Shown here: piece by piece, positions 20,878-42,907 of the stretch
Layout of the letters: the number at the start of each line of letters is the position of its first letter
Position numbering within the stretch: the stretch's first letter is position 1
Assembly (NCBI RefSeq): GCF_046533115.1
Contig: NZ_JAJQRC010000002.1
Coordinates: forward strand, 43,708 to 107,707
From: Treponema sp. TIM-1
Lineage (GTDB): Bacteria > Spirochaetota > Spirochaetia > Treponematales > Breznakiellaceae
Direction of reading: 5' to 3'
Length of the DNA stretch: 64,000 bases
Notes under the pieces: model-generated
What the model was told of the DNA's origin: nothing
The model's database searches: none
Seen by the model: only the letters and a program-made list of their open reading frames with translations
Position numbers and translations under genes: made by a program

Positions 20878-20890
20878 GGGGACAGAGCTC
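20878..20890 (+). repeat. GGGGACAGAGCTC repeat copy
   Basis: Exact 13-mer. First of two tandem copies, each within about 26 bp of conserved context GCATGGGGACAGAGCTC(A/G)ACTTGG. Confidence 0.8.
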
Positions 20891-20909
20891 AACTTGGAGG
20901 AGGCTGCAT

Positions 20910-20922
20910 GGGGACAGAGCTC
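20910..20922 (+). repeat. GGGGACAGAGCTC repeat copy
   Basis: Exact 13-mer. Second tandem copy, 32 bp after the first. Confidence 0.8.
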
Positions 20923-20966
20923 GACTTGGGAACTCAGATTGGGGATAGATTGTCCATTGGCAATCA

Positions 20967-23240
20967 TTAATGCACCTCGCCGGCGCCGATTACCTTAGTA
21001 TGGATGGGATTTCCCTGAAGGGTGAGAGCTCTGTCCCCAACGGTTACTTCATGGCTTACTACCTTGATAGGAATGGAGAAAAAGATATCGATATCTATCT
21101 CGGCAGGAGGTGTTCCGACGGGCAGACCTTGGATCTGTACCTGGGTACCGGTAGGGGTATCCCCCGCGTCGAGGACCTCCACCCGTTCATTACCCTCGGC
21201 ATCCTTATCGGAAGCTGCCAGGAGCATACCCCGGCTTTCCACTCCCCGGAGTTTTGCGGTTTTCAGGTTATAGGCGAGGATGATATGTTTACCCAAAAGC
21301 TCCTCTTCTTTATAAAAGGGGACAAGACCGGAGACGATAATCCGTTCCTCTCCGGCGATTTCCAAGGTTTCGATGTAAAGCTTGTCCGCCTTGGGATGCC
21401 GTTCGATTTTTACGATCCGGGCAACCCTGAGGTCCAGGGTTTGGATAAAACGATCCGGGGCCGGGAGGGTCTTTTCCGGGGGCGTATTCCCTGACACCGC
21501 CGGGGTATCTTCTGGTTTAGCGGCTTCCCGATCCATCCTATCCTTCTGACTGCCGGAATACCGTTCCCGCAGGTCCCGTACCAGGTCATCCTCTAAGCGG
21601 GGGAAAAGGACCTCACTTTTTTCAACCCTCAATAGTCCACCCTCCTGACCGATATCCTTCCAGGAAAGAATTTTTTCCTGGGCAGAACCCTGAGGCCCAA
21701 TGGCAAGACCAAAAAAGGATGCGATCTTCTCGGCGGCGGTGGGAATATAGGGATGGATCATCACCGCAATATCCCGAACCACATGGCAAAGATCCCGGAT
21801 GAGGACCGCCGCGGCCGGAGGATCCTCCGTCCGTTTCTTCCAGGGTTCACCATCCTGGAAGGTTTTATTAGCAAATGAGGATAATTCAAAGACGGTCCTG
21901 AAGGCATCCCGGAGTTCCGCCCGCTCCAGCTTTGCAGTAATATCGGCCTCGAAATTCCGCACCCGTTCCCAAAATGCCGGATTTCCGGGTTCACTGGGGA
22001 TCATCCCGTCATAATACCGGGTTACAAAGGAAAGGGTACGGTTCACCAGGTTCCCCAGATTACCGATCAACTCGCCGTTTACCTTCTCCTGAAAATCCTT
22101 CCAGGTAAAAAGGGCATCTGCCTTCTCCGGACGGTTATAAAATATATAAAAACGCCAAATATCCGTACCTATACCGGTATCCATGACATCGGTACCAAAA
22201 ACCCCCATTCCCTTGGATTTGGAAAATTTCCCCCCTTCGTAGTTCAGATATTCGGTACTGGACATGTGGTGCAGCATGGTCCAATTTTCCCCGGTTCCCA
22301 GAAGGCTTGAGGGAAAAATAACGGTATGGAAGGGAATATTGTCCTTACCAATGAACTGAAAGAGTTCCACCTGCCCGGGATTTTTCCACCAATCATCAAC
22401 AAAACAACGCCAGTCCCCGGTGGTCTCCGCCCCGTAATTTCCGGTGATGGAAATATATCCGATACAGGCATCGAACCAAACATAAAAAACCTTATTTTCA
22501 TACCCCACTTTGGGAACCGGGATGCCCCATTTCAGATCCCGGGTGATGGCCCGTTCCCGAAGGCCGTTACGGATCCAGGAATGGGTCATCTGCAAAGCGT
22601 TATTTGCCCAAAAGCCCTTGACCGAAGCATCCTTAAGCCATTCCTCAAGGCGATCCTTTAGCTGTGGGAGATCAATATAGAGATGTTTGGTTGATTTGAG
22701 TACCGGCTCAGAACCGCAGCTTGAACACCGGGGGGCCTTCAATTCCGTGGGGTCCAGAAGCTTACCGCAAACCTCGCACTGATCCCCCCGGGCATCCGGG
22801 GATCCGCAGTAGGGACAGATACCTCGGACATAACGATCCGCTAAAAACCTATCACAGTGGGCACAGTGAAGCTGCTCTATGGTACGCTCCACAATGAACC
22901 CATGGGCATCCAACTTTTTGAAGATATCCTGCACAATTTCGGTCTGAATCGGCGTTGTGGTCCGGCCGAATTTATCAAAGTTGATATTGAACCAACGATA
23001 AATGTCCGCATGGATAGCATAATAACGGTCACATAATTCCTGGGGGCTCACCCCTTCTTCGGCGGCCCTGGTTTCCGTGGCGGTACCGTATTCGTCGGTT
23101 CCACATATATAAAGAGTATCGTAGCCCCTGAGTCGGCAAAACCGGGCAAAGGCATCGGCAGACAGAACCTGGATAAGGTTCCCTAGATGGGGTACATTGT
23201 TTACATAGGGTAACGCAGAGGTTATTAATCTTCGTTTCAT
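20967..23240 (-). CDS. metG: Methionine--tRNA ligase with a C-terminal EMAP/Trbp111-like tRNA-binding domain
   Basis: HIGH-type motif PYVNNVPHLGNL, zinc knuckles and KMSKS. The C-terminus LRVARIVKIERHPKADKLYIETL is an OB-fold tRNA-binding domain. Confidence 0.9.
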   Translation of the reverse strand: MKRRLITSALPYVNNVPHLGNLIQVLSADAFARFCRLRGYDTLYICGTDEYGTATETRAAEEGVSPQELCDRYYAIHADIYRWFNINFDKFGRTTTPIQTEIVQDIFKKLDAHGFIVERTIEQLHCAHCDRFLADRYVRGICPYCGSPDARGDQCEVCGKLLDPTELKAPRCSSCGSEPVLKSTKHLYIDLPQLKDRLEEWLKDASVKGFWANNALQMTHSWIRNGLRERAITRDLKWGIPVPKVGYENKVFYVWFDACIGYISITGNYGAETTGDWRCFVDDWWKNPGQVELFQFIGKDNIPFHTVIFPSSLLGTGENWTMLHHMSSTEYLNYEGGKFSKSKGMGVFGTDVMDTGIGTDIWRFYIFYNRPEKADALFTWKDFQEKVNGELIGNLGNLVNRTLSFVTRYYDGMIPSEPGNPAFWERVRNFEADITAKLERAELRDAFRTVFELSSFANKTFQDGEPWKKRTEDPPAAAVLIRDLCHVVRDIAVMIHPYIPTAAEKIASFFGLAIGPQGSAQEKILSWKDIGQEGGLLRVEKSEVLFPRLEDDLVRDLRERYSGSQKDRMDREAAKPEDTPAVSGNTPPEKTLPAPDRFIQTLDLRVARIVKIERHPKADKLYIETLEIAGEERIIVSGLVPFYKEEELLGKHIILAYNLKTAKLRGVESRGMLLAASDKDAEGNERVEVLDAGDTPTGTQVQIQGLPVGTPPAEIDIDIFFSIPIKVVSHEVTVGDRALTLQGNPIHTKVIGAGEVH
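21025..21037 (-). repeat. GGGGACAGAGCTC repeat copy, inverted
   Basis: The plus strand reads GAGCTCTGTCCCC. It lies inside the last 25 codons of metG, encoding ...VGDRAL..., and is inverted relative to the two copies at 20878 and 20910. Confidence 0.8.
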
Positions 23241-23269
23241 ATTAGATCACTATAAAAAGGCGATACCGC

Positions 23270-23863
23270 TTAGTCAAGGTAAGGAAAAGGACCGGGCTTA
23301 GCTTTCTCCCGGAGCATTTCTGTGTAATACCGGGGTTCGATCCGGTCTTTTTTGATGCCGATTTTGTGGAGCAGCTCCAAAAGACGGAACCTGGCGGCTG
23401 TTACGGCTTCATTCGTATCATTATCGGTGATGATTTCCAGCTCTACAAACCAGCCGAGGCCTTCTACCTCGGTTAGCTCCGTGGTAATGCCCTCGCAGAT
23501 CCAGGCCCAGCCCCGTTTGTTTTTTTCTATACCCTTCTCAAGCCCCAGCCGGCGGAGTAACTCTTCAAAAGCAGTGTCATCGGATACTGAAAATTCCCGC
23601 TCATCGTTTATTTCTATACCCTCCCGGATCTCCTTGACCTTATAGGTTACCCACAAAGCGTGAGAAACCCTTCCGTCAGGATCGGTTTTGGTTTCCCGGC
23701 GGATCCGTACCCCTGATAGGGGGACAGAGCTGCCGGTCCCGGTAATAAACCAATAGGAATCCGCTTTCTCAAAGGATGTTTCAAGTCCGGCAAAGGAAAA
23801 AAGTCGGGCCCGTAAACCATCCGGATCATCCACCCAGGCTTTTAATTCTATTTCGATGGACAT
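23270..23863 (-). CDS. CYTH domain protein (class IV adenylate cyclase/triphosphatase-like)
   Basis: The N-terminus MSIEIELKAW...RIRRE carries the CYTH ExExK motif. 197 aa. Confidence 0.6.
   Translation of the reverse strand: MSIEIELKAWVDDPDGLRARLFSFAGLETSFEKADSYWFITGTGSSVPLSGVRIRRETKTDPDGRVSHALWVTYKVKEIREGIEINDEREFSVSDDTAFEELLRRLGLEKGIEKNKRGWAWICEGITTELTEVEGLGWFVELEIITDNDTNEAVTAARFRLLELLHKIGIKKDRIEPRYYTEMLREKAKPGPFPYLD
23720..23732 (+). repeat. GGGGACAGAGCTG repeat copy
   Basis: 12/13 match. It lies inside the CYTH gene on the opposite strand. Confidence 0.7.
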
Positions 23864-23917
23864 ATATACTCCCTTAGCGAAAATATTGAGTAAAAGTGGT
23901 TTGGAAACTGAAGTTCC

Positions 23918-24988
23918 CTATTGATTTTGCAGGGAAATTTCCTTGAAAACATCCTGAATTTCAATTACCGCATCGGTAAGGAAGGGATCGAACTGGGTTC
24001 CCCTGCCGTCACTGATTATTTTGATGGCTTCACTATAGGGGAAGGCTGCTTTATACACCCTGGAACAGACCAAAGCGTCATACACATCCACCAGGGAGAC
24101 GATCCGGGCGGAGAGGGGAATATCATACCCCTTAAGTCCCCGGGGATAACCTTTTCCATCAAACCGTTCATGGTGGCAATAACAAATATCCCGGCAATGT
24201 TTTAAATAAGGAGTATCGCTATGGGTCAAAATAGACTCGATAATGTTTTTCCCGATGGTGGTATGGGTTTTCATAATTTCAAATTCTTCCGGATCTAATT
24301 TTCCAGGCTTAAGGAGGATCTTATCGGGGATGCCTATCTTGCCCACATCGTGGAGGGCCACGGATTTGACAATAATATCCGGTTCAAGGCTGCGGAGTTC
24401 ATCCGCATAGGGAGATAATGATCCCATCACATGATCGATAAGGGCCTTTGAAAAAAACTGGGTTCTTTTAACATGGCTTCCGGACTCTAAATTACGGTAT
24501 TCTATGATATTTGCCATGGCCTGGAGCATGTTGTCCAAGGTTGAGGTTATTTCCGCAGCCTTTTCCGCAACCATCTCTTCCAAGCTGTCACTGTAATTCT
24601 TTAATTCAATCTGATTCATTACCCGGAGTTTTACAATTTCAGGCTGGAAGGGCTTAGAAATAAAATCCACCGCCCCGGCGGATAGGGCTTCGCTCTCCGA
24701 ATCCGAGGTGGTGATGAAGATTACTGGAATACGCTTGAGGGAATCATTGGTTTTCATCACATTGAGCATTTCATACCCATTCATCTCGGGCATAAAGACA
24801 TCAAGTAAAATGATTTTAGGTAAAACCTCAGCATGATACAGAATTTCCAGGGCTTCTTTCCCATTTTCCGCGGTAATAATATGATAACTATCCTTGAGGA
24901 TCTCCTCCAGGATGAGGAGATTCATTTCAACATCATCAACTACCAGAACCGTAGGAATTTTAGTACCGATCTTATCCATATTGCTCAA
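23918..24988 (-). CDS. Response regulator with an HD-GYP c-di-GMP phosphodiesterase domain
   Basis: REC domain with VLVVDD and LLDVFMPEMNGYEM. The HD-GYP core has HDVGKI and HHERFDGKGYPRGL. Confidence 0.85.
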   Translation of the reverse strand: MSNMDKIGTKIPTVLVVDDVEMNLLILEEILKDSYHIITAENGKEALEILYHAEVLPKIILLDVFMPEMNGYEMLNVMKTNDSLKRIPVIFITTSDSESEALSAGAVDFISKPFQPEIVKLRVMNQIELKNYSDSLEEMVAEKAAEITSTLDNMLQAMANIIEYRNLESGSHVKRTQFFSKALIDHVMGSLSPYADELRSLEPDIIVKSVALHDVGKIGIPDKILLKPGKLDPEEFEIMKTHTTIGKNIIESILTHSDTPYLKHCRDICYCHHERFDGKGYPRGLKGYDIPLSARIVSLVDVYDALVCSRVYKAAFPYSEAIKIISDGRGTQFDPFLTDAVIEIQDVFKEISLQNQ

Positions 24989-25343
24989 TTACCTTATCAA
25001 CATTTTTTATCGTCTCCTCAAAGCAGGTTTTAAAAGATTCCGGGACGCCGGATTTTACCTCTTTGTTTTTTATCTGGACTTCAAAATCAACAGACTGTTT
25101 GTAGAGCTCTGTTAAAGACAAATTAGCGGCAATCCCCTTAATAGTATGGACTAAGCCCTGGGCTTTTTCATAATCCGCCCCTTCTACCGCGGCGAGAAGG
25201 GCTTCCAGGCTGGGATCCGCCTTAAATTTGTTTAATAATTTTACATAGAGTTTGGTATTTCCCATCACCCGTTTGATGCCTTCCGTTAACTCAATATAAA
25301 CAACATCGTTATCAGCCATGCTCTTCTCCTCCTCGAAAAACAT
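24972..25343 (-). CDS. Hpt phosphotransfer domain protein
   Basis: 123 aa with the HxxKG motif VHTIKGIAANLSL. It overlaps and precedes the response-regulator gene. Confidence 0.6.
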   Translation of the reverse strand: MFFEEEKSMADNDVVYIELTEGIKRVMGNTKLYVKLLNKFKADPSLEALLAAVEGADYEKAQGLVHTIKGIAANLSLTELYKQSVDFEVQIKNKEVKSGVPESFKTCFEETIKNVDKVIEQYG

Positions 25344-25624
25344 TTTTACGATACGTATACTGAAAGTTTACCGGTTTTACACGATAATTGTCCATCCCGA
25401 CTGATAGTATTCTGTCAACATACCCTAAGCAAGGCCACAGAATATGCTCCCTTAATACAAATCAACAAATTCCACCCCCCAAACCTTGAAATTTAAAGAA
25501 ATAATTGAATAAAGTATACACAAAAAAATTCGTTTTAGCAATTAAAATAAGTTGAAATGTCATATTTTGAACCGGTAACGGTATTCCCGAAACTTCAATT
25601 TTGGGGGTGGCTAGGCGGTCCCCG

Positions 25625-26809
25625 TTAAAACCGTAGTCTGACCTTGGCGGTAACCAAACCGTTGGTTCCACTTATTTGTGGACCCAGTTCCCCCCGAAGG
25701 CCGTTTCCGGTAAAGGCATCCCGATCCAAAGGAACCCGACCGGTTAAACTGAGGGTTATCCCTTGAAAAAGGTCATGATCCAGGGTAAGGGATGGAGAAA
25801 AAGATATATCGTCCAGACTGCAAAGGACCGTAAGGTTTATCTGGGTATAATCACTAAAATGATAGAGGAAGGTACCGCAAAGGTAGTTCCGGTTTGAGAA
25901 TCCGGTTTGATTTTCAGTACTTTGCGCGGTGGACGACGCGGCCCCATTGTAAAGGTATTCAGTCAAAACATAGAAATTTCCGTTAAAAAAAGAATAGTCA
26001 AACCCGCTACTTATAGAAAGTCCGTCTATGCCGGTACGGACTTCATGGTTATATCTATAAAGCAGATCGACGATAAAGCCTAATTCCATATCCGCCTTAA
26101 GAGACAAACCGGTACGGTGGATTCCATATTCAGAAGTATCCTGAGGAGATTCAAAGCTATATAAGACCTGGATACTTGCCCGATCCCAATGTTTATCTCC
26201 GGATATTCCCATGAGAAACCCCTTGCCATGGGCGTTAAAAGGATTTTTAGGAGTAGTGGTAAAGGTGAGCAGCTTAATGGTATCTTCAGGGTAGACGGAA
26301 AGGGCTGCCCCCAGTACGGCCCGGGGGCGGGCATCAGGAAAGAGGGGATTTCGGGGATTAAGAAAATCAGACGGACTAAAAACCTGGCCAAATCCAAAAC
26401 CCAGACGCATGAGTCCCGTATCCACATCAAGATATTCGCCTTTTATCCGCATATAGAGCCGTTCTAGTTCCATGGCCGCCGCATAATTATCCCCCGTAAC
26501 AAAAGCGGAGGCAGAGAAGGGGTTTAAAGTTGCACCGGCAAAACCGGCTAGGGCGGAACTACCGGCGGCGGCAATAAGATTGAAAGCCCCATAAAAATCA
26601 GCTCTGTCCCCAATTTTTGTCTGAAACCGCAGATTTGCATACTCTTCCCAGCCGAATAAAAAGGGGGATATGTCCCCGGTACCACCCTGAAAACTCACCT
26701 TACTGTCCAAAAAGCCCGAAAGGGTAAATCCCTCTGCAAGCAGCTCTGTCCCCAAAGAGAGTAGAATCATCCCTAAAAACAAGCCGAAAATCCGGATCTT
26801 TCTTTTCAT
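25625..26809 (-). CDS. Putative outer-membrane beta-barrel protein
   Basis: Signal peptide MKRKIRIFGLFLGMILLSLGTELLA. The sequence has alternating beta-strand character and a C-terminal ...RLRF aromatic residue. It is the last gene of the ABC/LolA-like operon. Confidence 0.5.
   Translation of the reverse strand: MKRKIRIFGLFLGMILLSLGTELLAEGFTLSGFLDSKVSFQGGTGDISPFLFGWEEYANLRFQTKIGDRADFYGAFNLIAAAGSSALAGFAGATLNPFSASAFVTGDNYAAAMELERLYMRIKGEYLDVDTGLMRLGFGFGQVFSPSDFLNPRNPLFPDARPRAVLGAALSVYPEDTIKLLTFTTTPKNPFNAHGKGFLMGISGDKHWDRASIQVLYSFESPQDTSEYGIHRTGLSLKADMELGFIVDLLYRYNHEVRTGIDGLSISSGFDYSFFNGNFYVLTEYLYNGAASSTAQSTENQTGFSNRNYLCGTFLYHFSDYTQINLTVLCSLDDISFSPSLTLDHDLFQGITLSLTGRVPLDRDAFTGNGLRGELGPQISGTNGLVTAKVRLRF
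26599..26611 (-). repeat. GGGGACAGAGCTG repeat copy
   Basis: The plus strand reads CAGCTCTGTCCCC. It lies inside the OMP gene, encoding IGDRAD in frame 0. Confidence 0.7.
26741..26753 (-). repeat. GGGGACAGAGCTG repeat copy
   Basis: It lies inside the same OMP gene but in a different reading frame (LGTEL). Confidence 0.7.
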
Positions 26810-26832
26810 ACTATCATCCCTCCTTACTTTCC

Positions 26833-27579: not shown

Positions 27580-27597
27580 CGTAAACCTCCTAATAGT

Positions 27598-27676
27598 AAC
27601 TACGAACCACACTAACAAACACAAAAAGGAAAACATGCCGAACAAAAAGTTCGTGTTTTTCGTGTGGTTCGTAGTT
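27598..27676. repeat. Intergenic element with a 15-bp perfect inverted repeat (AACTACGAACCACAC / GTGTGGTTCGTAGTT) enclosing three 9-bp-spaced GTTCGTG-like units
   Basis: Units lie at 27649-55 (GTTCGTG), 27658-64 (TTTCGTG) and 27667-73 (GTTCGTA). The element sits between the FtsX permease stop and the LolA-like gene start. Confidence 0.6.
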
Positions 27677-27684
27677 GAAATTCT

Positions 27685-31405: not shown

Positions 31406-31441
31406 AGTATGCTCCTCAAAGTTACCTGATAACCAACCATG

Positions 31442-32560
31442 TCATTGCTCCCCCTCATTTCTATCTCCTCTCTCCTCCCGCCGTAGTTCCGTCAAAGCCT
31501 CAAGGCCGAAGATGTCCTTTGCCTTGAGTTCCTCGGTAATTGAACTGGGAACCAACATCATGGAATTCCCCGCTTTGAGCCCTTCATTCAAAATCGAAAG
31601 GATCTTGAGCTTCATCGCCGGTTCGGTTTTCGCGTAAATCCGAACCGCCTCTTCCAGCTTTCTGGCAATCTCTATCTCCGCTTCCGCCAGAAGGATCCTC
31701 CCCTTCTTTTCCCGTTCCGCCTGGGCAAGCCTTGAAAGGGAATCCTGGAGATGTTCCGGAATCTGTATATCCGTAATTTCGATATGTTGTACGGTGATTC
31801 CCCATTCGGTGGTTTTTTTATCCACTTCTTCCTGAATCTGCTTTTTAATGATATCCCCTCTTTCCAGGAACGTAGTCAAATCATGGCTGCTCACCGCGTT
31901 TCTCAGGGCTGTCTTTGAGGAGAGGATCACCGCATCCTCGTAGTTCTGAACCTCCAGGACCGCTTTTTCCGGGTCCCAGACCAGCCAGAAACACAGGGCA
32001 TCCACGGTCACCGTCACCGAATCCAGGGTGAGGGTTTCTTGGGCGGAAAAATCAGTCACCCGGATTCTAAGATCCACCCGTTGGGCTATCCTATCCGCAA
32101 TGGGAATAAGTACAAAAAGCCCCGGTCCCCGGATTCGGTAAAACCTACCGAAACGCAGCACAATGGCCCGTTCCCATTCTTCCAGCCGTTGTATTGCCGG
32201 GACAAAAAGCACCGCTAGGGCCATAAAAATGAGGGACAGAGCTAACCGGGGAAAACCTATAATTCCAAAAACACCGACCAGCAGGATGTATATTTTTATC
32301 CCCGCCCCCCATCGAGGGAAGAAAATCAATAATATAAGGGTTACACAGGGCATTCCCAGAAGTATTCCTAATTCCGGTAACGAAGGCGGAGAACCGGTAA
32401 CCAATGAGCCTCCCAGGATAAAAAGCACCCCAATTCCTAAAAAGCCTATTCCCAGCGCGTTCAGGGAGAAATCCCGAAGTTTCTGCCGGGGCTGAATATT
32501 TTTAATAAGCTGTTTAACCGCAGGATTTTTATTTTTCTGGGTAGATCCATTAAACTTCAT
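31442..32560 (-). CDS. SPFH/band-7 (stomatin-like) protein with an N-terminal multi-TM region
   Basis: Start trimmed to MKFNGSTQKN, preceded by a GGAGGAG RBS. The SPFH core is VLRFGRFYRIRGPGLFVLIPIADRIAQRVDLRIRV. Confidence 0.65.
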   Translation of the reverse strand: MKFNGSTQKNKNPAVKQLIKNIQPRQKLRDFSLNALGIGFLGIGVLFILGGSLVTGSPPSLPELGILLGMPCVTLILLIFFPRWGAGIKIYILLVGVFGIIGFPRLALSLIFMALAVLFVPAIQRLEEWERAIVLRFGRFYRIRGPGLFVLIPIADRIAQRVDLRIRVTDFSAQETLTLDSVTVTVDALCFWLVWDPEKAVLEVQNYEDAVILSSKTALRNAVSSHDLTTFLERGDIIKKQIQEEVDKKTTEWGITVQHIEITDIQIPEHLQDSLSRLAQAEREKKGRILLAEAEIEIARKLEEAVRIYAKTEPAMKLKILSILNEGLKAGNSMMLVPSSITEELKAKDIFGLEALTELRREERGDRNEGEQ

Positions 32561-32579
32561 GTTACTCCTCCTATAATTC

Positions 32580-32975: not shown

Positions 32976-33051
32976 CTAGTACAATCGTAAATGAACTAGT
33001 ACAATATGTCAATTACTTTTTTTATTTTTTATGCTATTTAGGGACAATTTA

Positions 33052-33063
33052 GGGGACAGAGCT
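33052..33063 (+). repeat. GGGGACAGAGCT repeat copy flanking the transposase (upstream side)
   Basis: Intergenic, about 90 bp upstream of the Y1 transposase ATG. It is preceded by a partial duplicate GGGACA. Confidence 0.75.
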
Positions 33064-33153
33064 TATTAGCTGGAAAAGAAGTCTAAAGTCCGCTTTTTTA
33101 AAAATTTACGATTTCCCGAAGCAATATGAATATGAGATCCATAATAAAGAGTT

Positions 33154-33654
33154 ATGAGACATCCAAGAAAACTTAAGGATAACGCCACTTATCATGTGAC
33201 GGTCCGGGCAAACCGGAGGGAGATGGTTCTTTTTTGTACGGCTATGCGGATTTTGTTCCTCAATGTGGTAAAACGGGCAAAAAAGAAATATAAATTCCAA
33301 ATAGACAATTTTTCTATCATGGGAAATCATGTTCACCTTATTATTCGGCCGGGAAAGGATGAATCCTTATCCCGTATCATGCAATGGATATTAAGTGTCT
33401 TTGCTATGGCATGGAACCGAGCCCACTTTCAGACCGGTCATGTATGGGGAGAACGATTTTTTTCCAAGATCATCAATGATTGTATCGAATTTATCAAAAC
33501 ATTTCATTACATTTCGCAAAATCCGGTAAAGGCCCAATTAGTCAAAAGTCCTGAAGAATGGGAATTTGGAGGACTCTGGCATTTTATTTCAGGGAAAAAA
33601 GAAATAATTGGGGAACCCGCATCATGGATCCAAGAGATATATCGGAATTATTGA
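33154..33654 (+). mobile_element. IS200-like Y1 (HuH) tyrosine transposase, probably a REP-associated RAYT
   Basis: 166 aa with the HuH motif GNHVHLIIRP. The downstream HFQTGHVWGERFF block fits the IS200/RAYT family. The gene is low in GC and is flanked by inverted copies of GGGGACAGAGCT at 33052 and 33681. Confidence 0.6.
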
Positions 33655-33680
33655 GAATATTCTATCCCTGGGATCGTAAA

Positions 33681-33692
33681 CAGCTCTGTCCC
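33681..33692 (-). repeat. GGGACAGAGCTG repeat copy flanking the transposase (downstream side, inverted)
   Basis: 11/12 match, 27 bp after the transposase stop. Confidence 0.65.
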
Positions 33693-33700
33693 TCTAGATA

Positions 33701-35062
33701 CTAATTTTTGAAGCTATGGAGAGGGGCAGGTATCCTGCCGCCCCGGGCGATAAAGGAGTCGCTTTTCGCCCTGTTTACCGCCATAATGGGAGTACCCCCT
33801 AAAAGGCCGCCGAATTCCGCCCATTCCCCGGCTTTTTTACCCGGCACCGGAATGACCCGTACCGCGGTGGTCTTATTGTTCACCATCCCGATGGCCATTT
33901 CATCGGCAATGATCGCCGAAATCGTTGCGGTGGAGGTATCCCCCGGAAGGGCAATCATATCCAGTCCCACCGAGCAGACCGAGGTCATAGCTTCTAATTT
34001 ATCCATGCTTATAGAACCGGCTCTCACCGCCGCGACCATACCTTCATCCTCCGAAACCGGTATGAACGCCCCGGAAAATCCTCCCACATGGGTCGAGGCC
34101 ATAACCCCCCCCTTTTTTACCATATCCGTCAGCATGGCCAGGGCCGCGGTAGTTCCGTGGGTTCCCGCCGACTCAAGGCCCATCTCTTCCAGGATCCGGG
34201 CTACCGAATCCCCTACCGCGGGGGTAGGGGCCAGGGAAAGATCCAATATTCCGAAGGGAACCCCTAACCGTTTGGCCGCTTCCATCCCTACCAGTTGACC
34301 CATACGGGTAATCTTGAAGGCCGTTTTTTTGATAATATCCGCCAGTTCATCAAAATTTGCGTCCCGATGCCTTTCCAGGGCGGCCTTCACCACCCCGGGA
34401 CCGGAAACACCCACATTAAGGCATGCCTCCCCTTCCCCGACCCCATGAAAGGCCCCGGCCATAAAGGGATTATCCTCCGGCGCGTTACAGAAAACCACTA
34501 ACTTCGCACAGGCGATCCCATCCGTGCCGGCGGTTTTTTCCGCGGCGGCCTTGATCACCTCTCCCATGCGGCGGACCGCGTCCATGTTGATACCGCTTTT
34601 CGTACTAGCCACATTTACCGACGCGCAAACCCGTTCCGTAAGGGACAGAGCTTCAGGAATCGAATCAATAAGCCGTCTGTCCCCCTGGCAAAAGCCCTTT
34701 TGTACTAGGGCAGAGAACCCCCCGACAAAGTCAATACCCAGTTCCTTGGCGACCTCATCCAGGACCACCGCATAGGGGGTATAATCTTCGTCCCCGGAAG
34801 AACCGGCAATAAGGGCCATGGGGGTAACCGAAAGACGCTTATTGATAATGGGGATACCGTATTCGACCTCTATCTGCCGGCCCGTCTGAACCAGGGATCC
34901 CGCCGTCTTAAGGAGTTTTTCCCGGATTCTCCTCCGGGTCTCCCCGCCGGACGCGGAAGCGCAATCCAGTAGGGATACCCCCAGGGTAATGGCCCGGATA
35001 TCCAGTTTGTACCGCAGGAACATATCCACGGTCTCTTTTATTTCAAATGGGGTAAATAACAT
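33701..35062 (-). CDS. UPF0210 (DUF711, PFL-like) family protein
   Basis: The N-terminus [34 protein letters not shown] is the hallmark start of UPF0210. 453 aa. Paired with the upstream ACT protein. Confidence 0.7.
34642..34652 (+). repeat. GGGACAGAGCT(T) repeat copy
   Basis: 11-mer core inside the UPF0210 gene, encoding ...EALSL... on the opposite strand. Confidence 0.55.
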
Positions 35063-35067
35063 AAGTT

Positions 35068-35337: not shown

Positions 35338-35347
35338 CCTATTCCCC

Positions 35348-36430: not shown

Positions 36431-38421
36431 AATTCTAACAATATCCTTTCCGCTTCAGCCCGCCGGGAATAACCGGGGTTACGGGTCAGAAGATCCTGAA
36501 TATACCGTTTGGCTGAATCGGCGTCTCCAAGGCTAACATAGGTATTACCCAGGGCCAAGATAGCATCCCAGTTATTGGGAACCAGCCTAACCAAATCCTG
36601 GTAAATATCCCGGGCCTTGGTTAGGTCCCCGGCGCCTATATAGGCCAGGGCTAAATTTTCCCGCACCGTGGTATTATTAGGTTGAATGGTCAAGGCCCGC
36701 TCGTAGTGTTCCACACTTTGGACCCATTTTTCCTGTTTGGCGTACGCCTGCCCCATGTTGTTATTAACCTCAAAATTATTCGGTTCCACCCGATAGGCTT
36801 CACCAAGAACTTCCAATGCCTGATCCGGAAAACCTCGGGCGGTATAAAATTTTCCCAAGTTTATCCGGGGCAAGAGATACCGGGGATCCAAAGAAGCGGC
36901 TTTGGTATAGGACATAACCATATCGTCCGAATTCCCCGCCGCCTCATGGGCAAGTCCCAGGGTATAATTATATTCTTTGTTGTTCGGGCCCCTATCCGCG
37001 GCTTTTTTTGCGAATCCCACCGCTTCGGTGCTTTTGTTAAGGGCAAGCTTAACCACCGCCATGTTGTAATTGGTCCGGTCGTCGTTGGGCGCCGACTCCA
37101 GGGCTTTACCAAAGGAAATCTCTGCGGCGGCATAATCCCCGGCGGCACTCTGGACCACCCCCAATTCCCGCAGGGCGGCGAGATCCTGGGGCTCGTAACG
37201 CAGGATCTGGGTGAATGCGTCAATCGCCCCCCGGGTATCACCCTTGGCGGAAAGAATCCGGCCTATTCCCCGGTAAGCCGCGGTATAATCGGGCCGTATC
37301 GCCACTGCCTGCCGGAAAGCGGCCAGGGCATCGTCCCGCTGCCGCAGCTCATAAAGGGCAATCCCCAGGTTATACCAGGCGGGTTCAAACCGGCTATTAA
37401 GACGGGTAACCGTTTCAAAGGCCTGTCGAGCCTCGGCAATTTTGCGGGAACTGAAATAGGCCCGTCCCAGTTCATAGGAGTACACAAAATTATTGGGCTC
37501 CAATCGGACCGCTTCCCGGAATTCTTCCGCGGCGTTATCCCATTGGCTGAGATCCCGGTAAATCTTTCCCAGGGTATTGTGGGGCATAGCCTGGGAAGGG
37601 TCCTTTTCCAGGGCCTCTCGGGCATGGGATTGGGCGGCTCGAAGAGCTTCCTGCCCTTCGGGATTGTTTTTATTTCGGGAATATCCATCATAGTAGGCAT
37701 CCGCTACCTCCGCGAGCTTTTGCGCTTCAAAACGGGGCTGTCCCGGAGGTATATTGTCCAAAGCGGTATCAAAGGCTTTGATAGCGCTGTTGAAATTATT
37801 CCCCGTAACGGCGGCCTTTCCCTGAGAGATATAGTCGTTTACGAGGCGCATTCGGGCTTGTAATTCCCGGGACTGCCGGGCAAGTTCTTCCTCCTCCGCT
37901 TTGCGCCGGGCCGCTTCCGCCTCCTCATTGGCCCGTTGTTCCGCCTCCGCCACAAGCCGGGCGGCGGCTTCGGCTTCTTCCCGGGCCCGTTCCTCCCCGG
38001 CATTCCGTCGGCGTTCCGCCTCCAGCCGTTCCATGGCGGCAATTTCTTCCAGAGAAGGTCTGCCTTGGTTGGCCGCATGCTCCCGGGTCAGGGCTTCCCG
38101 CTGGGCGACCAGAATCGCATCCCGCATATTACGGGCCTCCTCGTCGAAAACGTTCTCAATCAGGAGACGGTCCAAAAGGTCCAGGGCTCGCTGATAAGCC
38201 TCCTGCTCCATATATTCCCGGGCAAGTCTGATGATGTTGTTACGAGGAACGTCGGTCCCGGTATTATTATCATCGTCCAGGGTGATATTTTTTCCTCCGT
38301 TATCTTCCCCTTCCGCCTGCCCGTTATCGTTATTAAAGAGAAAAATTGCCCCTATGGTAAGTAATATAATAACTACAACCCCCAGGGCTATCCCACCAAT
38401 GACTATGACTCTTTTATTCAT
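36427..38421 (-). CDS. Membrane-anchored TPR-repeat protein with a coiled-coil region
   Basis: TM helix, an EA-rich coiled coil, and at least 8 TPR units with W-LG-Y / A-F-A-P patterns. Confidence 0.7.
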   Translation of the reverse strand: MNKRVIVIGGIALGVVVIILLTIGAIFLFNNDNGQAEGEDNGGKNITLDDDNNTGTDVPRNNIIRLAREYMEQEAYQRALDLLDRLLIENVFDEEARNMRDAILVAQREALTREHAANQGRPSLEEIAAMERLEAERRRNAGEERAREEAEAAARLVAEAEQRANEEAEAARRKAEEEELARQSRELQARMRLVNDYISQGKAAVTGNNFNSAIKAFDTALDNIPPGQPRFEAQKLAEVADAYYDGYSRNKNNPEGQEALRAAQSHAREALEKDPSQAMPHNTLGKIYRDLSQWDNAAEEFREAVRLEPNNFVYSYELGRAYFSSRKIAEARQAFETVTRLNSRFEPAWYNLGIALYELRQRDDALAAFRQAVAIRPDYTAAYRGIGRILSAKGDTRGAIDAFTQILRYEPQDLAALRELGVVQSAAGDYAAAEISFGKALESAPNDDRTNYNMAVVKLALNKSTEAVGFAKKAADRGPNNKEYNYTLGLAHEAAGNSDDMVMSYTKAASLDPRYLLPRINLGKFYTARGFPDQALEVLGEAYRVEPNNFEVNNNMGQAYAKQEKWVQSVEHYERALTIQPNNTTVRENLALAYIGAGDLTKARDIYQDLVRLVPNNWDAILALGNTYVSLGDADSAKRYIQDLLTRNPGYSRRAEAERILLEL

Positions 38422-38430
38422 TTCGCATTC

Positions 38431-39147
38431 CTATTCCAGCTCAAACGCGTCATCATACCCCAGGACTTCCTCAGTACCGGCGGAAAGACCGGTACTTTCT
38501 TCCGTCGCTGCTTGAAGGGAAGCGGATATCTCATCCAAAAGCCGCTGTTTCCGTTCTGCCTCAGCCCGGGCCGCGGCTTCCGCCTCGATCCGGCGCCGTT
38601 CTTCGGCGGCAAATTCTTCTTTGATGGAGGCTACCAGCTGCTCAATCCGGGGCCGTTTCGCTGATCGGGGCTCCAGAGACAAGTAAAGCTCATAATCGGA
38701 GATAGCATCCTTAAGGGAACCGGCCTGAACCAGGGCATTCGCCCGGTTTAAATAGGCTGAAGCATAGGCGGGATCCGCCTCAATGGCTTGGGTATAGTAC
38801 TGTCCCGCATAATTCAGGTTACCCTTACTATAATAGAGATTACCTAGGTTAAAGGCAATCCGGGCGGTTTCATCCCCGCCCCGGGGAAGTATTTTTCGAA
38901 ATACCGCAATAGCGTCGTCCAACCGGTTAAGCTGCTGGTAACTTATACCCAGATAAAGACCGGCCCGGATATTTGCCGGATCCTCCGTCAGGGAAGTTTC
39001 CAGAAAAGGAAGGGCTTCCTGAGGCCTGTTCAGGAGAAAATATTCTTCTCCCTGGGTAAAGGCATCTTGGGCAAATCCCCGGGACAAAAACAAGCCCCAT
39101 AAAATCATACCCAGACCGAATGTTTTCTTCATCCTTATTCCCGCCAT
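38431..39147 (-). CDS. Secreted TPR-repeat protein
   Basis: Signal peptide, TPR units, and a C-terminal acidic coiled tail. Confidence 0.65.
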   Translation of the reverse strand: MAGIRMKKTFGLGMILWGLFLSRGFAQDAFTQGEEYFLLNRPQEALPFLETSLTEDPANIRAGLYLGISYQQLNRLDDAIAVFRKILPRGGDETARIAFNLGNLYYSKGNLNYAGQYYTQAIEADPAYASAYLNRANALVQAGSLKDAISDYELYLSLEPRSAKRPRIEQLVASIKEEFAAEERRRIEAEAAARAEAERKQRLLDEISASLQAATEESTGLSAGTEEVLGYDDAFELE

Positions 39148-39464
39148 GCTATTTCCACCCTGCTTTCAAGGTTTGACATGAAGGATTAAAACAATTAATC
39201 TTCATAATAATAAAGATACCATAAAAAAGCGAAAAAAGTCATGACCATGATACAAACGGTCCTCAAAAAAGTAAAATCGATAAAGCCCCCAGTGATACGG
39301 GATTATCGGGTTTTATTGGTAAATTTTCGGCAGAATTTACGACAATTTTTTCCCTTTTTTTATAAAATCAAAGGAAAAAGGTGGCTTTTTTCCATGAATT
39401 TGGGGATTTTTAAATCGAAGGCGGCTTTTTTAAAATTTAATCTTTTGAAAAGGCCTTAAAGATT

Positions 39465-40130
39465 ATGAAAATATTATGTATATCCGATCATATCGATCCC
39501 CTTGTATATTCAAACTCGATTAAAGAACGTTTTAAGGACATTGATATGGTCCTCAGTGCCGGGGATCTTCCCATGGAATATTTGGAATTTATCGTTTCAA
39601 GCCTCAACAAATCCCTGTTTTTTGTGTTTGGAAATCATAACCTTAACGAATTGTACCGGTATAAAACCTCCGGTATGATCGGTTATCGTAATTGGATAAG
39701 TGAGGATGCGACTTATGGGTCGGGGGCCGTTCATATCGGTTCCAAAGCAAGAATGGAGGAAGGACTTATTATAGCCGGACTGGGAGGTTCCCGGCGGTAT
39801 AACCGGGGGGAAAATCAGTATACCGAATTCCAGATGAACTTCGAAATTATAAAACTCATTCCTATCCTGATCATCAACCGGATCTTCCGGGGAAGATTTC
39901 TGGATATACTCCTGACCCATGCCGCTCCCCGGGGTATCCATGATAAGGAGGATCCCTGTCATCGGGGCTTCAAAGCTTTTTTATGGTTCATGCGGGTCTT
40001 TAAACCTAAATATCTCATCCATGGTCATATTCATCTCTATGATTTATCGGATCTCAGAACCACCCGGTATAAGGATACCCTGGTGGTAAATGCCTTTAGT
40101 CATTACATAATCGAAATCGGGGAAAAATAA
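39465..40130 (+). CDS. Metallophosphoesterase (calcineurin-like)
   Basis: Motifs ISDHID, GDLP, GNHN and HAAPRG...GHIH. Confidence 0.7.
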   Translation: MKILCISDHIDPLVYSNSIKERFKDIDMVLSAGDLPMEYLEFIVSSLNKSLFFVFGNHNLNELYRYKTSGMIGYRNWISEDATYGSGAVHIGSKARMEEGLIIAGLGGSRRYNRGENQYTEFQMNFEIIKLIPILIINRIFRGRFLDILLTHAAPRGIHDKEDPCHRGFKAFLWFMRVFKPKYLIHGHIHLYDLSDLRTTRYKDTLVVNAFSHYIIEIGEK

Positions 40131-40131
40131 T

Positions 40132-41055
40132 ATGAAAAATATGTTTACCATACAAGCTACGGAAGATTTTTCAAAGGCCCGGGGTCGGGCCATACTCTCC
40201 CGGATTCAGCATTTTATGAATACCGATAAGGATAAACTCCTCTCTTTTAATGATGTAAAGGAAATCCTCAAACCCAAAAACCAAACCTATAAGGGGATGC
40301 AGACGGTCCCCATTAACCTTATCGTGGGCAGCGAAGGCCGGTATCGGGACTTTAATAAATATTTTCTGCCAAAATCGGATCACCTCAAATCCCGCTGGGT
40401 CCGGGTTGATGAAGCCCATATCAGAAGTATTGTCTTGCCCCCCATTCAACTTTATGAAATTGGGGGAGTCTATTTTGTCCGGGACGGGAATCACCGGGTT
40501 TCGGTGGCCAGAAGTCAGGGAGTTGAGATGATCGATGCGGAAGTAATCAGCCTTTCCAGTGAAATAGCCATCGATCCATCCATGACCACCGACGATCTCC
40601 GGGATCTGATCATCGGCCTTGAAAAAAAGGCGTTTTATGAAAAAACCGAATTTGGAAAATATACCAATTGCTATGATTTGGATTTCAGTATGCCCGGGCG
40701 TTACGATGTGATATATAACCATATTTTGGTCCATAAATATTATCTTAACCAGGGGATTCCCAAGGAAATCCCCTTTTCCGATGCCCTGATCTCCTGGTAT
40801 AACCATGTATACGAGCCTATTATCAAAATAATCAAGGATGAACGGCTTTATCTTAATTTTCCTGGCAGAACCCCGGGGGATCTTTATGTCTGGATCGTCA
40901 AACATTGGGATTTTTTGAAAAAAAAATACGGTATCTATTATTCCATTCCCGATGCGGCCAGGGATTTTTCTCAAAAGTACGGAAAAAACAGGGTCAAATT
41001 CCTCCAATTTATGACCGCCCTGTTCCACAAGCTGATATACCGGTCGCCGTCATAA
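40132..41055 (+). CDS. ParB/Srx-like nuclease-domain protein
   Basis: The ParB-type motif is YFVRDGNHRVSVAR. No HTH recognized. The C-terminal domain is unassigned. Translationally coupled to the upstream phosphoesterase. Confidence 0.45.
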   Translation: MKNMFTIQATEDFSKARGRAILSRIQHFMNTDKDKLLSFNDVKEILKPKNQTYKGMQTVPINLIVGSEGRYRDFNKYFLPKSDHLKSRWVRVDEAHIRSIVLPPIQLYEIGGVYFVRDGNHRVSVARSQGVEMIDAEVISLSSEIAIDPSMTTDDLRDLIIGLEKKAFYEKTEFGKYTNCYDLDFSMPGRYDVIYNHILVHKYYLNQGIPKEIPFSDALISWYNHVYEPIIKIIKDERLYLNFPGRTPGDLYVWIVKHWDFLKKKYGIYYSIPDAARDFSQKYGKNRVKFLQFMTALFHKLIYRSPS

Positions 41056-41108
41056 GGGCGCCCGGTATACCTGCGGGTGGTTTTAAAACAGAACAAGGAA
41101 GATAAGCG

Positions 41109-41972
41109 GTGGCTATTTTATCAATACAATCCCATGTATGTTATGGCTATGCGGGAAACAGTGCCGCGGTGTTTCCCCTCCAGCGTATGGGGCATACGGT
41201 CTGGGCAATTAATACCGTGGAATTTTCCAACCATACCGGATACGGCACCTGGCGGGGGACAGAGCTGGGGGCGGAAATGACCACCGCCTTGGTCCAGGGC
41301 TTGGACGAGCAGGGAGTTCTTACGGATTGCGAGGCGGTCCTTTCAGGCTATATGGGGAATGCCGCGGTGGGCCGGTCGATTATGGATACGGTCCGACTGG
41401 TACGGACCAAGGCACCGGGCGCCCTTTACTGCTGCGATCCCGTAATGGGGGATATAGATCGGGGCCTTTATGTCAAGCCTGATATTCCGGATATTTTTAA
41501 AAATGAAATCATCGTCCTGGCGGATCTCTTAACCCCCAACCAATTTGAACTTGAAGTTTTAACCGGAATGGATACCGGGGATATCACCGCCGCCCGTAAA
41601 GCCATAGATCTGCTCCATGCCCGGGGCCCCAGGATTGTACTGGTGACCAGTTACCGGGAAGGGAAAAATACCACCGGTCCCCGGGACCATATTGATCTGT
41701 TGGTTTCCGCCGGAAGCGAAACCTACCGGATCCATACCCCGGAACTTCCTTTTGATATGGCCATATCCGGGTCCGGGGACCTGACCACCGCGGTTTTTCT
41801 GTCCCGATACCTTGAGACCGGGGACATTCGGAGCGCCCTGGAGCTTACCACGGCGTCAATCTACGGAATCATGGAAGCCACCTTTAACGCCCATAGCCGG
41901 GAACTCTGTATCATAGCGGCTCAAAATGAATTGAACCATCCTTCCCGGTCCTTTAATGCGGTACGGCTCTAG
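41109..41972 (+). CDS. pdxK: Pyridoxal kinase
   Basis: The N-terminus ILSIQSHVCYGYAGNSAAVFPLQRMGHTVWAINTVEFSNHTGYG is the PdxY/PdxK family start. Ribokinase fold. Confidence 0.8.
   Translation: MAILSIQSHVCYGYAGNSAAVFPLQRMGHTVWAINTVEFSNHTGYGTWRGTELGAEMTTALVQGLDEQGVLTDCEAVLSGYMGNAAVGRSIMDTVRLVRTKAPGALYCCDPVMGDIDRGLYVKPDIPDIFKNEIIVLADLLTPNQFELEVLTGMDTGDITAARKAIDLLHARGPRIVLVTSYREGKNTTGPRDHIDLLVSAGSETYRIHTPELPFDMAISGSGDLTTAVFLSRYLETGDIRSALELTTASIYGIMEATFNAHSRELCIIAAQNELNHPSRSFNAVRL
41255..41267 (+). repeat. GGGGACAGAGCTG repeat copy
   Basis: It lies inside pdxK, encoding WRGTELG. Confidence 0.7.
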
Positions 41973-42907
41973 TGTCTAAAATAACGAAGACTCCCCTATC
42001 CGAAGTCCCCTACCGCTACTTTAAAGAATTTATTGCCCCGGAAACGGATAGGTTTGCCTTTCTGAGCGCCCTGCTGGATAAATTGGGCCTACGGCGATCG
42101 ACCCTTACCATTGCAGGAAACCGGCATTTTATGGTTTTCCCACCTCACGAGGGACAGAGCTCGCCGAAAGGTCAGAAAGGCCAGGCCTTCCAAGCGAGCT
42201 CTGTCCCCATTGTGCTGGTTGCCCATTATGACCGGGCAGCGGACAGCCCCGGTGCGAACGATAACAGCGCCGCGGTATTTCTTCTTATAGAAACAGCCAT
42301 GAAACTATGGCAAAAAAAAGGTAAGAACTGGCTTATTATCTTTACCGACAAAGAGGAATTAACCCAAGACGAGGGAATCAAAAGTCAGGGATCCTATACG
42401 CTGGCCATGGGATTACGGCAAGCCGGTCTTGGAAGGGGACGATTTTTCATATTCGATGCCTGCGGTACCGGGGATACCCTTATTATTTCCACCACCGCCG
42501 ATCACCTGATGAAAAACGAAAAAGGGCTGGGGATAATAAAAACAAGGCAGGCGGTACAGCAGCTGAGAAACTTGGCCCTGGAAACAACCCGGGAACTTCA
42601 GATGGATAAGGTGCTGCTCTTGCCAACCCCCTTTTCCGATGACGCGGGTTTTTTACGGGCGGGAATACCCGCCCAGACCATCACGGTACTCCCCGGTAAG
42701 GAAGCGAGCCCCTTTATTTCCCTCCTGCGGAACAACTCCGGCCTTGACCAGGCTCTGGTAAACCGGGAGATACAGAAAAATTATGACCGACGTTTAATCC
42801 CCGAAACATGGCGCTGCCTTAACGGCCCCGGGGATAGTTACCCCCGGCTTACCCCGGAACATTTTTCCCAGGTGGTACGTTTTGCCTGTGCTTTGAGTAA
42901 AAAATGA
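41972..42907 (+). CDS. M28-like peptidase family protein carrying an in-frame palindromic insertion
   Basis: LVAHYDRAADSPGANDNSAAVFLLIE and DDAGFLRAGIP resemble the M28 zinc-ligand blocks. Codons about 59 to 79 (HEGQSSPKGQKGQAFQASSVP) are encoded by a 62-bp perfect inverted repeat containing the GGGACAGAGCTCG motif. Confidence 0.5.
   Translation: MSKITKTPLSEVPYRYFKEFIAPETDRFAFLSALLDKLGLRRSTLTIAGNRHFMVFPPHEGQSSPKGQKGQAFQASSVPIVLVAHYDRAADSPGANDNSAAVFLLIETAMKLWQKKGKNWLIIFTDKEELTQDEGIKSQGSYTLAMGLRQAGLGRGRFFIFDACGTGDTLIISTTADHLMKNEKGLGIIKTRQAVQQLRNLALETTRELQMDKVLLLPTPFSDDAGFLRAGIPAQTITVLPGKEASPFISLLRNNSGLDQALVNREIQKNYDRRLIPETWRCLNGPGDSYPRLTPEHFSQVVRFACALSKK
42151..42208. repeat. Perfect inverted pair GGGACAGAGCTCG ... 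CGAGCTCTGTCCC (13-bp arms, 31-bp loop) inside the M28-like gene
   Basis: Arms lie at 42151-42163 and 42195-42207. The loop ccgaaaggtcagaAAGGCCaGGCCTTccaag contains a nested palindrome. The whole element is in frame with the host ORF. Confidence 0.8.

Follow-up and report, generated by a model that had tools for sequence, protein, structure and literature searches.

A short DNA word clustered around a RAYT gene in Treponema sp. TIM-1 and other spirochaetes, probably a reduced form of the REP/RAYT system

Introduction

Within a 64-kb stretch of DNA from Treponema sp. TIM-1 (the window), a 12-base word, RGGGACAGAGCT, is scattered through the genes and spacers around a gene at 33154-33654 (+ strand) that encodes a HUH/Y1 nuclease of 166 amino acids (aa), a member of the REP-associated tyrosine transposase (RAYT) family, REP standing for repetitive extragenic palindromic sequence. 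The locus raises the question of what a word so short, lying mostly inside genes, has to do with such an enzyme. The answer favoured here is that RGGGACAGAGCT is probably the cognate DNA word of this apparently single-copy RAYT and a spirochaete version of the REP family. Across spirochaete species the word is found in company with the RAYT, its copies make up a cloud around the gene that grows sparser over about 15 kb in each direction, and in RAYT-linked lineages the copies are kept intact far better than the neighbouring DNA.

The matter touches on two long-standing open questions, how REPs spread and what RAYTs do for their hosts. The original prediction, made from the sequence alone, had stated that no such element is described for spirochaetes, and open-access literature searches agree, with the word not found in a bacterial context, no RAYT linked to Treponema or spirochaetes, and no appearance in the major REP/RAYT surveys.

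Copies of the word in the window

All TIM-1 counts refer to the 64-kb window alone. The 12-mer GGGGACAGAGCT occurs there in nine exact copies, against 0.00 expected from 100 dinucleotide shuffles. The invariant 11-mer core, GGGACAGAGCT, is by far the most over-represented word of 9-12 nucleotides (nt) and occurs in 14 exact copies on both strands, all within 20721-42208. The twelve positions listed in the original prediction proved right within 1-2 bases, and two further exact copies were added, at 20721 in a FemAB gene and at 32233 in a Band7 gene. The prediction had also placed the word far above chance, which holds, although its non-uniform spread had not been stressed: all 14 copies fall in 21.5 kb (scan statistic P = 6.6e-6), while the other 42.5 kb contains none (P = 9e-13 at the density of the cluster).

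The flanks of the copies are unrelated, indicating that the repeat is a short word of about 12 nt and not a longer repeat or duplication; a single segmental duplication, already judged improbable beforehand, is ruled out on the same ground. Pooling the copies reveals one further constrained position, a purine directly 5' of the core, giving the unit R-GGGACAGAGCT.

Twelve of the 14 copies lie inside genes backed by Pfam domains or conserved homologues, namely FemAB (three), MetG, CYTH, a porin-like outer membrane protein (OMP, two), Band7, DUF711/UPF0210, PdxK and M28 (two). As had been claimed, they use both strands and all three frames, and the core can be read through in all six frames without meeting a stop codon. 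The remaining two occupy intergenic DNA on either side of the Y1 gene, inverted relative to each other.

The RAYT gene and its flanking copies

The profile search proposed for the Y1 gene identifies it as a RAYT: besides the Pfam domain Y1_Tnp (5e-15), it passes the NCBIfam equivalog NF047646, 'REP-associated tyrosine transposase', with 92.9 bits against a cutoff of 80. The encoded protein is 100% identical to one of Treponema sp. TIM-1. Its only relative in PDB is 4er8, the E. coli TnpA-REP bound to REP, and in this alignment the HUH motif (nHvHli) and the catalytic tyrosine (hYisqNPvk) are aligned and intact. Membership of IS200/IS605 was rejected, the NF033573 profile reaching 32.4 bits, below its cutoff of 55.

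The inverted pair bracketing the gene (33053-33068 and 33677-33692) spans 16 nt with 88% complementarity. Its upstream member is an exact copy of GGGGACAGAGCT at 33052..33063 (+ strand), 101 nt before the RAYT start and in the orientation of the gene, with a partial copy, AGGGACAA, nearby at 33040-33047. The downstream member, AGGGACAGAGCT, lies at 33682..33693 (- strand), 28 nt past the RAYT stop and inverted relative to the upstream copy; it has an ortholog in the closely related locus L125 and is absent from other RAYT loci. Two-sided inverted flanking is thus found only in TIM-1 and L125, and since this layout is specific to their lineage, the conserved feature is the presence of one to three sense copies upstream of the RAYT. 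Such copies or variants (at most two mismatches) stand 45-220 nt upstream of the start at all 17 RAYT loci examined. The REP/RAYT arrangement put forward in the original prediction is therefore strengthened, by the motif at 17/17 RAYT loci and by REP arms in other phyla (below), but its inverted pair does not extend beyond TIM-1 and L125.

Copies at a fixed position upstream of the RAYT promoter region could also be read as part of an array of sites bound by some host protein that is not the RAYT, nucleoid-organising or regulatory, with the RAYT promoter as one of its targets. A linear, hairpin-less site would suit double-strand binding, and the strong conservation of the sites and the arrays with a period of about 21 nt would be in keeping with it. 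Nothing, however, points to such a protein. The RAYT is the only gene consistently linked to the word, whereas its other neighbours vary (aspS in three genomes, GntR and DUF711 in TIM-1); most copies lie in open reading frames (ORFs) with no fixed relation to promoters, and the identity with REP hairpin arms elsewhere would have to be coincidence. A host protein of this kind is considered improbable.

The genomic site of the gene differs between species, and there is one RAYT per locus. In T. primitia (L001:10001-10531), in metagenome contig L002 (6616-7143) and in Breznakiella (L130:10001-10504) the RAYT lies beside aspS and chromate-transporter genes, apparently its ancestral site. In TIM-1 and L125 (1041-1571) it lies between GntR and DUF711, at the same site in both, with all copies orthologous. 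In L123 (1-2400), synteny with TIM-1 ends exactly at the RAYT spot, which is occupied by PPC and FlaA genes. The differing sites, together with this synteny break, suggest that the RAYT has moved at least once, 'domesticated' though it is. The idea that the word is a GntR operator was dismissed on the grounds that RAYT neighbours differ between species.

Occurrence of the word and the RAYT in other genomes

The association extends well beyond TIM-1. Around the RAYT of T. primitia ZAS-2 (67% identical), 17 exact 11-mers lie between -7.6 and +1.6 kb of the gene, and the 9 kb beyond that cluster holds none; the neighbouring genes (aspS, chromate transporter genes and OmpA) differ from those of TIM-1. 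Contig L002, with a RAYT 71% identical, carries 31 exact copies in 17 kb, including an array of 13 units. Additionally, L131, with a RAYT 55% identical and a G+C content of 65%, carries 15 exact and 10 one-mismatch copies in 20 kb.

A motif-pair scan over one genome per species, requiring two copies 9-39 nt apart, returned at least 120 loci where about two chance matches were expected. At least 64 of these belong to Spirochaetota, often as many contigs of one genome; T. primitia and TIM-1 are not among the matches listed. Loci ascertained through motif pairs carry densities biased upward. Within the 64 listed spirochaete loci, each of at most 8 kb, a RAYT homologue is present in 10 (P = 1e-14 against a generous expectation).

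The word also varies by lineage. Breznakiella carries the variant GGGACAGAGCA (L130: 5303, 8662, 12874 and 16047), L132 carries GGGACAGAGAT and GGGACAGACAT (L132:9916), and in L064 GGGGACAGACC stands upstream of the RAYT. These lineage-specific variants hint that the word co-varies with its RAYT.

Intergenic tandem arrays of up to 13 units, each unit beginning with the motif, were observed in several of these genomes. In T. primitia, L001:2410-2570 contains eight units with a period of 21 nt; other arrays lie at L002:13749-14227 (period about 39 nt), L013:3355-3570 (21/27 nt), L069:5610-5810 (13 nt) and L004:2487-2527 (15 nt). At the end of an Akkermansia metagenome-assembled genome (MAG) contig, an array with a period of 12 nt (L059:249-345) abuts a weak Y1-like fragment (E = 1e-6).

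Density of copies around the RAYT gene

Pooled over five loci with long flanks and counted with a 10-mer core, the density falls with distance from the RAYT, from 1.6/kb within 1 kb to 0.4-0.9/kb at 1-10 kb, 0.29/kb at 10-15 kb and 0.03/kb beyond 15 kb, a distance which the TIM-1 window alone reaches. The Breznakiella homolactica RAYT locus, with the same aspS-RAYT arrangement as T. primitia, shows seven copies or variants between -4.7 and +6.9 kb. In the same genome, a 21-kb locus 2.4 Mb from the RAYT (L129) contains no copies, even at one mismatch, and this locus is the ortholog of the motif-rich TIM-1 block GntR-Band7-ABC-FtsX-LolA-porin. L123, syntenic with TIM-1 from DUF711 to M28 with no RAYT at the spot, keeps only the M28 pair (two copies).

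This distribution bears on the resemblance to uptake signals suggested in the original prediction. Under that explanation a competence receptor would read the word, biased uptake and recombination would accumulate copies, and the RAYT would be a bystander. A short word in both orientations, mostly intragenic and in all frames, shared by many related species, with a few inverted pairs and with copies made by substitution without indels in conserved genes, is what such a system would produce. The copies are nevertheless clustered and not uniform, being absent from 42.5 kb of the window and from the 21-kb Breznakiella locus and dense at RAYTs, so that the resemblance proves superficial. The upstream copies at 17/17 RAYT genes, the tandem arrays of 8-13 units and the identity of the 11-mer with a REP hairpin arm in unrelated phyla also speak against it, leaving an uptake signal very unlikely.

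Conservation, gain and loss of copies

Comparison of orthologous genes, recommended in the original prediction, separates lineages that keep the copies from those that lose them: L125 retains them, L128 has decayed sites and L123 has only the M28 pair. Overall identity to TIM-1 is nearly equal for L125 (89.5%) and L128 (89.6%). The seven copies shared by TIM-1 and L125 are identical at 77/77 positions, whereas their ±40-nt flanks are identical at 456/560 (81%; P = 4e-7 versus motif). Conversely, the seven left-hand sites compared between TIM-1 and L128 are identical at only 59/77 positions (P = 8e-4). Taken together, 77/77 and 59/77 imply that motif positions are either frozen or change faster than the background, and are never neutral.

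The sites behind these figures include the following. The FemAB-family gene contains three antisense copies, at 20720..20731 (+ strand; aa ~79; 7/11 identical at the orthologous site in L128), at 20878..20889 (+ strand; N-terminus; one-mismatch relic in L128) and at 20910..20921 (+ strand; N-terminus), the latter two forming a direct pair with 32-nt spacing. The copy antisense in the CYTH-domain gene (23720..23731, + strand) is 9/11 identical in L128, and the copy antisense in the Band7/SPFH gene (32232..32243, + strand) has an orthologous copy in L125.

Codon choice provides a second line of evidence. In the porin-like OMP gene, the sense copy at 26600..26611 (- strand; aa 67) writes the family-conserved peptide G-D-R-A in the exact motif codons, with L128 carrying the synonymous variant GGGATAGAGCT. 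The second sense copy of this gene, at 26742..26753 (- strand), lies in the signal peptide (G-T-E-L, aa 19); GTEL is found in relatives of 79-89% identity and L128 has GVKL, so that in the porin protein series at least the signal-peptide copy is ancestral and was lost in L128. At the DUF711 site, where the copy is antisense (A-L-S-L; 34641..34652, + strand), TIM-1, L125 and L123 encode nearly the same protein with codons that differ, mostly synonymously. TIM-1 and L125 spell the word together with an 8-nt partner arm (GGG GAC AGA ... GCT CTG TCC C), and L123 has GGA GAT CGG ... GCG CTG TCC C. The claim that selection acts on the DNA is supported by this synonymous-codon evidence and by the 77/77 conservation against 81% in the flanks.

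These comparisons also dispose of a by-product of coding or composition, in which a favoured peptide, codon usage or chance would generate the word. Some copies do encode peptides conserved within a protein family, GDRA in the porin and in AspS being examples. Shuffled sequence is nonetheless expected to contain no copies, the word falls in all six frames on both strands and also occurs between genes and in arrays, and orthologs away from any RAYT encode the same peptide with different codons. The likelihood of such a by-product is regarded as negligible, and a peptide- or codon-driven origin was ruled out by six-frame use and the synonymous-codon comparison.

Copies appear to have been gained in two ways. 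The insertion type is seen in AspS of L002, which compared with T. primitia has a 22-aa in-frame insert and a C-terminal insert of about 9 aa, each with a copy read G-D-R-A; a third AspS copy occupies the same position in L002 and T. primitia and is a variant in Breznakiella. The resemblance to Rickettsia palindromic elements raised in the original prediction survives for this minority of insertion-type copies and fails for the rest. The substitution type is represented by the DUF711 copy and by the sense copy in the PdxK/PdxY-like kinase (G-T-E-L; 41255..41266, + strand; ortholog in L125), both of which align without indels to solved homologues (PDB 2ha9 and PDB PdxY, respectively) over conserved stretches of the protein; the GDRA copy of the OMP gene is of this type too. 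In the same insertion-versus-substitution check, the PDB alignment of MetG stops before the tail copy and that of CYTH falls short of the motif site; for M28, the PDB search found no homologue. Where TIM-1 (41109-41972) and L125 have the 287-aa pdxK/pdxY-like kinase gene, L123:9777-9989 has a 70-aa ORF, which looks like gene loss or a pseudogene.

Two further inverted pairs are formed by copies inside genes. In the M28 peptidase, a sense copy (G-Q-S; 42150..42161, + strand) and an antisense copy (S-S-V-P; 42197..42208, - strand) form the left and right arms of one 13-bp stem. Both 13-nt arms are kept in three genomes (TIM-1, L125 and L123), and the loop, in a hypervariable protein segment, varies freely, including a 30-nt indel. 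The second pair joins the FemAB copy at 20910 to its 13-nt inverted partner at 21026-21038, spanning the MetG stop and the FemAB start; this partner contains the MetG copy (21027..21038, - strand), sense in the C-terminal tail (G-D-R-A, aa 735 of 757), to which the alignment with solved homologues does not extend. At 20967 the stop of MetG coincides with the start of FemAB, and the MetG tail extends about 40-60 aa past the aligned part of the C-terminal tRNA-binding/EMAPII-like domain (window 20967-21140). A motif pair across this junction suggests that each of the two ORFs may have been extended here into what was once an intergenic element.

Hairpins, tags and relation to REP sequences

The link to REPs comes from outside the spirochaetes. 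In 37 Burkholderiales loci among the matches listed (Rhodoferax, Limnohabitans, Ramlibacter and others), the 11-mer is the 5' arm of a REP of the form GTTG-GGGACAGA-gctgaaga-TCTGTCCC, arranged in extragenic tandem arrays, and the Planctomycete form is GTAG-GGACAGAGCT-cc-AGCTCTGTCC. The identical 11-mer covers the 5' arm and the first loop bases of those hairpins, which suggests that the spirochaete form is homologous in sequence to the REP arm. The 3' arm is present in 85/89 Burkholderiales copies, 16/389 spirochaete copies and 0/19 Chthoniobacterales copies, and the GTTG tag in 64/88 Burkholderiales copies. Across 67 loci, 278/389 copies lie in ORFs of at least 100 aa, by ORF calls that are crude. 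The spirochaete form thus misses three defining REP features: palindrome, tag and extragenic location.

Hidden hairpins were sought by a complementary-run statistic and by folding, and were rejected since only about 5% of copies qualify. In single-stranded DNA folding, the M28 pair forms a strong hairpin (-19.9 kcal/mol, z = -5.7), the DUF711 copy folds with its 8-nt partner arm TCTGTCCC at 34676-34683 (z = -3.1), and the MetG/FemAB pair is weak (z = -1.9). Five isolated window copies show no advantage over shuffles in folding (z from -0.7 to +0.9).

Several observations weigh against assigning the word to the RAYT as a REP. The characterised TnpA-REP enzymes all need a folded single-stranded hairpin, with variable dependence on GTAG (Corneloup 2021, PMC8266576). 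Among isolated spirochaete copies (n=147), 5.4% have a complementary run of at least 8 nt within 50 nt downstream, compared with 0.4% in shuffled-word controls. No GTAG-like tag is present in the spirochaete copies, position -1 being constrained (G 63%, A 36%) and positions -4 to -2 near background. Additionally, in some MAGs the motif turns up on many contigs where no RAYT is seen, and the RAYT of L132 has upstream variant copies but no surrounding cloud. Finally, substitution-type copies in conserved coding sequence are unlike what transposition predicts and resemble the outcome of selection or biased conversion.

The small fraction of copies that keep a partner arm (about 5% against 0.4% in controls), the three window sites that fold and the view that many singletons are remnants of dimers (Di Nocera 2013, PMC3733652) could together indicate eroded hairpin REPs or REPINs, with decayed 3' arms and an inactive system. 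Decay should strike both arms alike, whereas the 5' word is perfect in hundreds of copies and the 3' arms are absent. Furthermore, copies are conserved at 77/77 positions against 81% in flanks, the DUF711 and PdxK substitution-type copies never had room for a full hairpin insertion, and RAYT ORFs are intact with catalytic motifs. Erosion is accordingly given little credence.

A hairpin-less form was also observed in the Chthoniobacterales MAG CAKUMP01 (Verrucomicrobia), where a longer unit, ATTA-GGGACAGAGCT-GTAAAC, occurs on at least six contigs (L042, L047, L056, L109, L114 and L120), indicating that the arm-less form is not confined to spirochaetes.

Proposed mechanism

Under the reading of the word as the cognate site of the RAYT, and judging from the sequence comparisons, the enzyme would bind the word and probably nick single-stranded DNA there. 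Recognition in spirochaetes would be independent of a hairpin, a linear site of 12 nt being enough, and a site that is short and stop-free in six frames can live inside genes. New copies may arise by local duplication or short in-frame insertion bounded by copies, a route that would also build the arrays with periods of 12-39 nt, or by conversion of near-matching sites through a few, mostly synonymous, substitutions. The gradient may reflect an enzyme that prefers targets close to where it is encoded, or re-insertion over short distances within one replication fork, and once the link to the RAYT is lost the copies would decay quickly. Template switching between quasi-palindromic arms could yield inverted pairs, not isolated copies, and a selective benefit of sites near the RAYT, or biased conversion, is a possible source of the substitution-type copies.

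A stronger version of this mechanism holds that the spirochaete RAYT lineage dropped hairpin recognition and that its linear 12-nt site is actively introduced into the DNA nearby, conserved coding sequence included, through multi-nucleotide, largely synonymous conversion of near-matching sites, preferentially within about 15 kb in cis. This is a speculative proposal and on balance unlikely. If true, it would amount to a DNA-level drive by a domesticated HUH nuclease, colonising genes without inserting anything.

Other observations in the window

A second over-represented 12-mer, CTGCCGGGGCTG, has five exact copies (2601, 8522, 16773, 32483 and 62497) and one-mismatch copies at 60509 and 62516, where about 0.5 are expected at up to one mismatch. 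Its copies have unrelated flanks and are spread across the whole window, and the pair 62497/62516 forms a terminator-like hairpin followed by a T-run. CTGCCGGGGCTG was not found in L001, L002 or L123. Across the 64 kb every Rfam family stays below its gathering score, so that tRNAs, riboswitches and other known RNAs are lacking, which rules out a known RNA family as the origin of the RAYT-linked word, and a phage element was ruled out with only two matches in the viral collection.

Implications

REP association has been scored by the abundance of flanking extragenic 16-mers (Bertels et al. 2017). A 12-nt, mostly intragenic word with variable flanks would escape such a screen, and some RAYT groups may look REP-poor for this reason. 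If the stronger version of the mechanism is true, RAYT groups thought to be REP-less after 16-mer screens could have short cognate words; as k-mer screens of at least 16 nt limited to extragenic DNA would miss such families, REP-poor groups may need re-examination. A REP pared to a hairpin-free word of 12 nt would challenge the view that RAYTs can recognise only folded DNA, a view drawn from three characterised enzymes.

Syntenic loci that have or lack the RAYT, together with the gradient around the gene, constitute natural experiments that make the dynamics measurable, as do the copies that stay frozen (77/77) or disappear fast (59/77) where overall divergence is equal. In annotating the genomes of termite-gut and other spirochaetes, the short in-frame indels that recur there, unusual codon choices and tandem arrays between genes are explained by the word.

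Comparison with known systems

The word shares with the DNA uptake sequences (DUS) of Neisseria and the uptake signal sequences (USS) of Pasteurellaceae a length of 10-12 nt, both orientations, a mostly coding location in all frames, origin by substitution at compatible sites and conservation across related species. Unlike them, it clusters around one gene, forms tandem arrays and is linked to a RAYT. The even density of about 1/kb expected of DUS/USS was not seen in the window, in L129 or in the decay with distance; no competence genes were noticed in the window annotation, in which no search was aimed at them. With Rickettsia palindromic elements it has in common that some copies are short in-frame inserts in housekeeping genes (AspS of L002). 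Those elements, however, are 100-150 bp long, palindromic and always insertions, whereas the unit here is 12 nt and several copies show no indel. IS200/IS605 elements share the enzyme superfamily and the presumed single-strand chemistry, but the RAYT gene is single in each locus and syntenic across species, with no subterminal hairpin ends and no tnpB.

The GTAG-tagged REP superfamily (Di Nocera et al. 2013, PMC3733652) accommodates the Burkholderiales and Planctomycete repeats, which have the GTTG/GTAG tag, an 8-10-bp stem, a short loop and extragenic arrays. The spirochaete and Chthoniobacterales forms differ in keeping only the 5' arm and the adjacent loop bases. Some intragenic REPs have been recorded, as a minority (Di Nocera 2013, PMC3733652), whereas intragenic copies are the majority in spirochaetes, not the exception.

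The closest likeness is to the REP/RAYT systems of E. coli (TnpA-REP) and P. fluorescens SBW25 (REPINs). In the spirochaetes, as there, a short repeat flanks a RAYT-family HUH/Y1 gene. The gene appears to be single-copy, its repeat seems to be enriched in other parts of the genome as well, and the two are probably passed on vertically, with the size of the repeat population varying by lineage. Tandem and inverted arrangements occur, inverted copies bracketing the gene in TIM-1 and L125. The spirochaete repeat departs from this model in its length of 12 nt, with about 95% of copies lacking a palindrome and no GTAG tag, in having about 70-85% of copies inside ORFs, in the many copies made by substitution and not insertion, in their concentration within about 15 kb of the RAYT, and in its host phylum, Spirochaetota. 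The best-supported explanation of the locus is therefore a REP/RAYT system of unusual, reduced form that is new to its phylum, lacks the hairpin, extends into genes and has its copies concentrated close to the gene for the nuclease.

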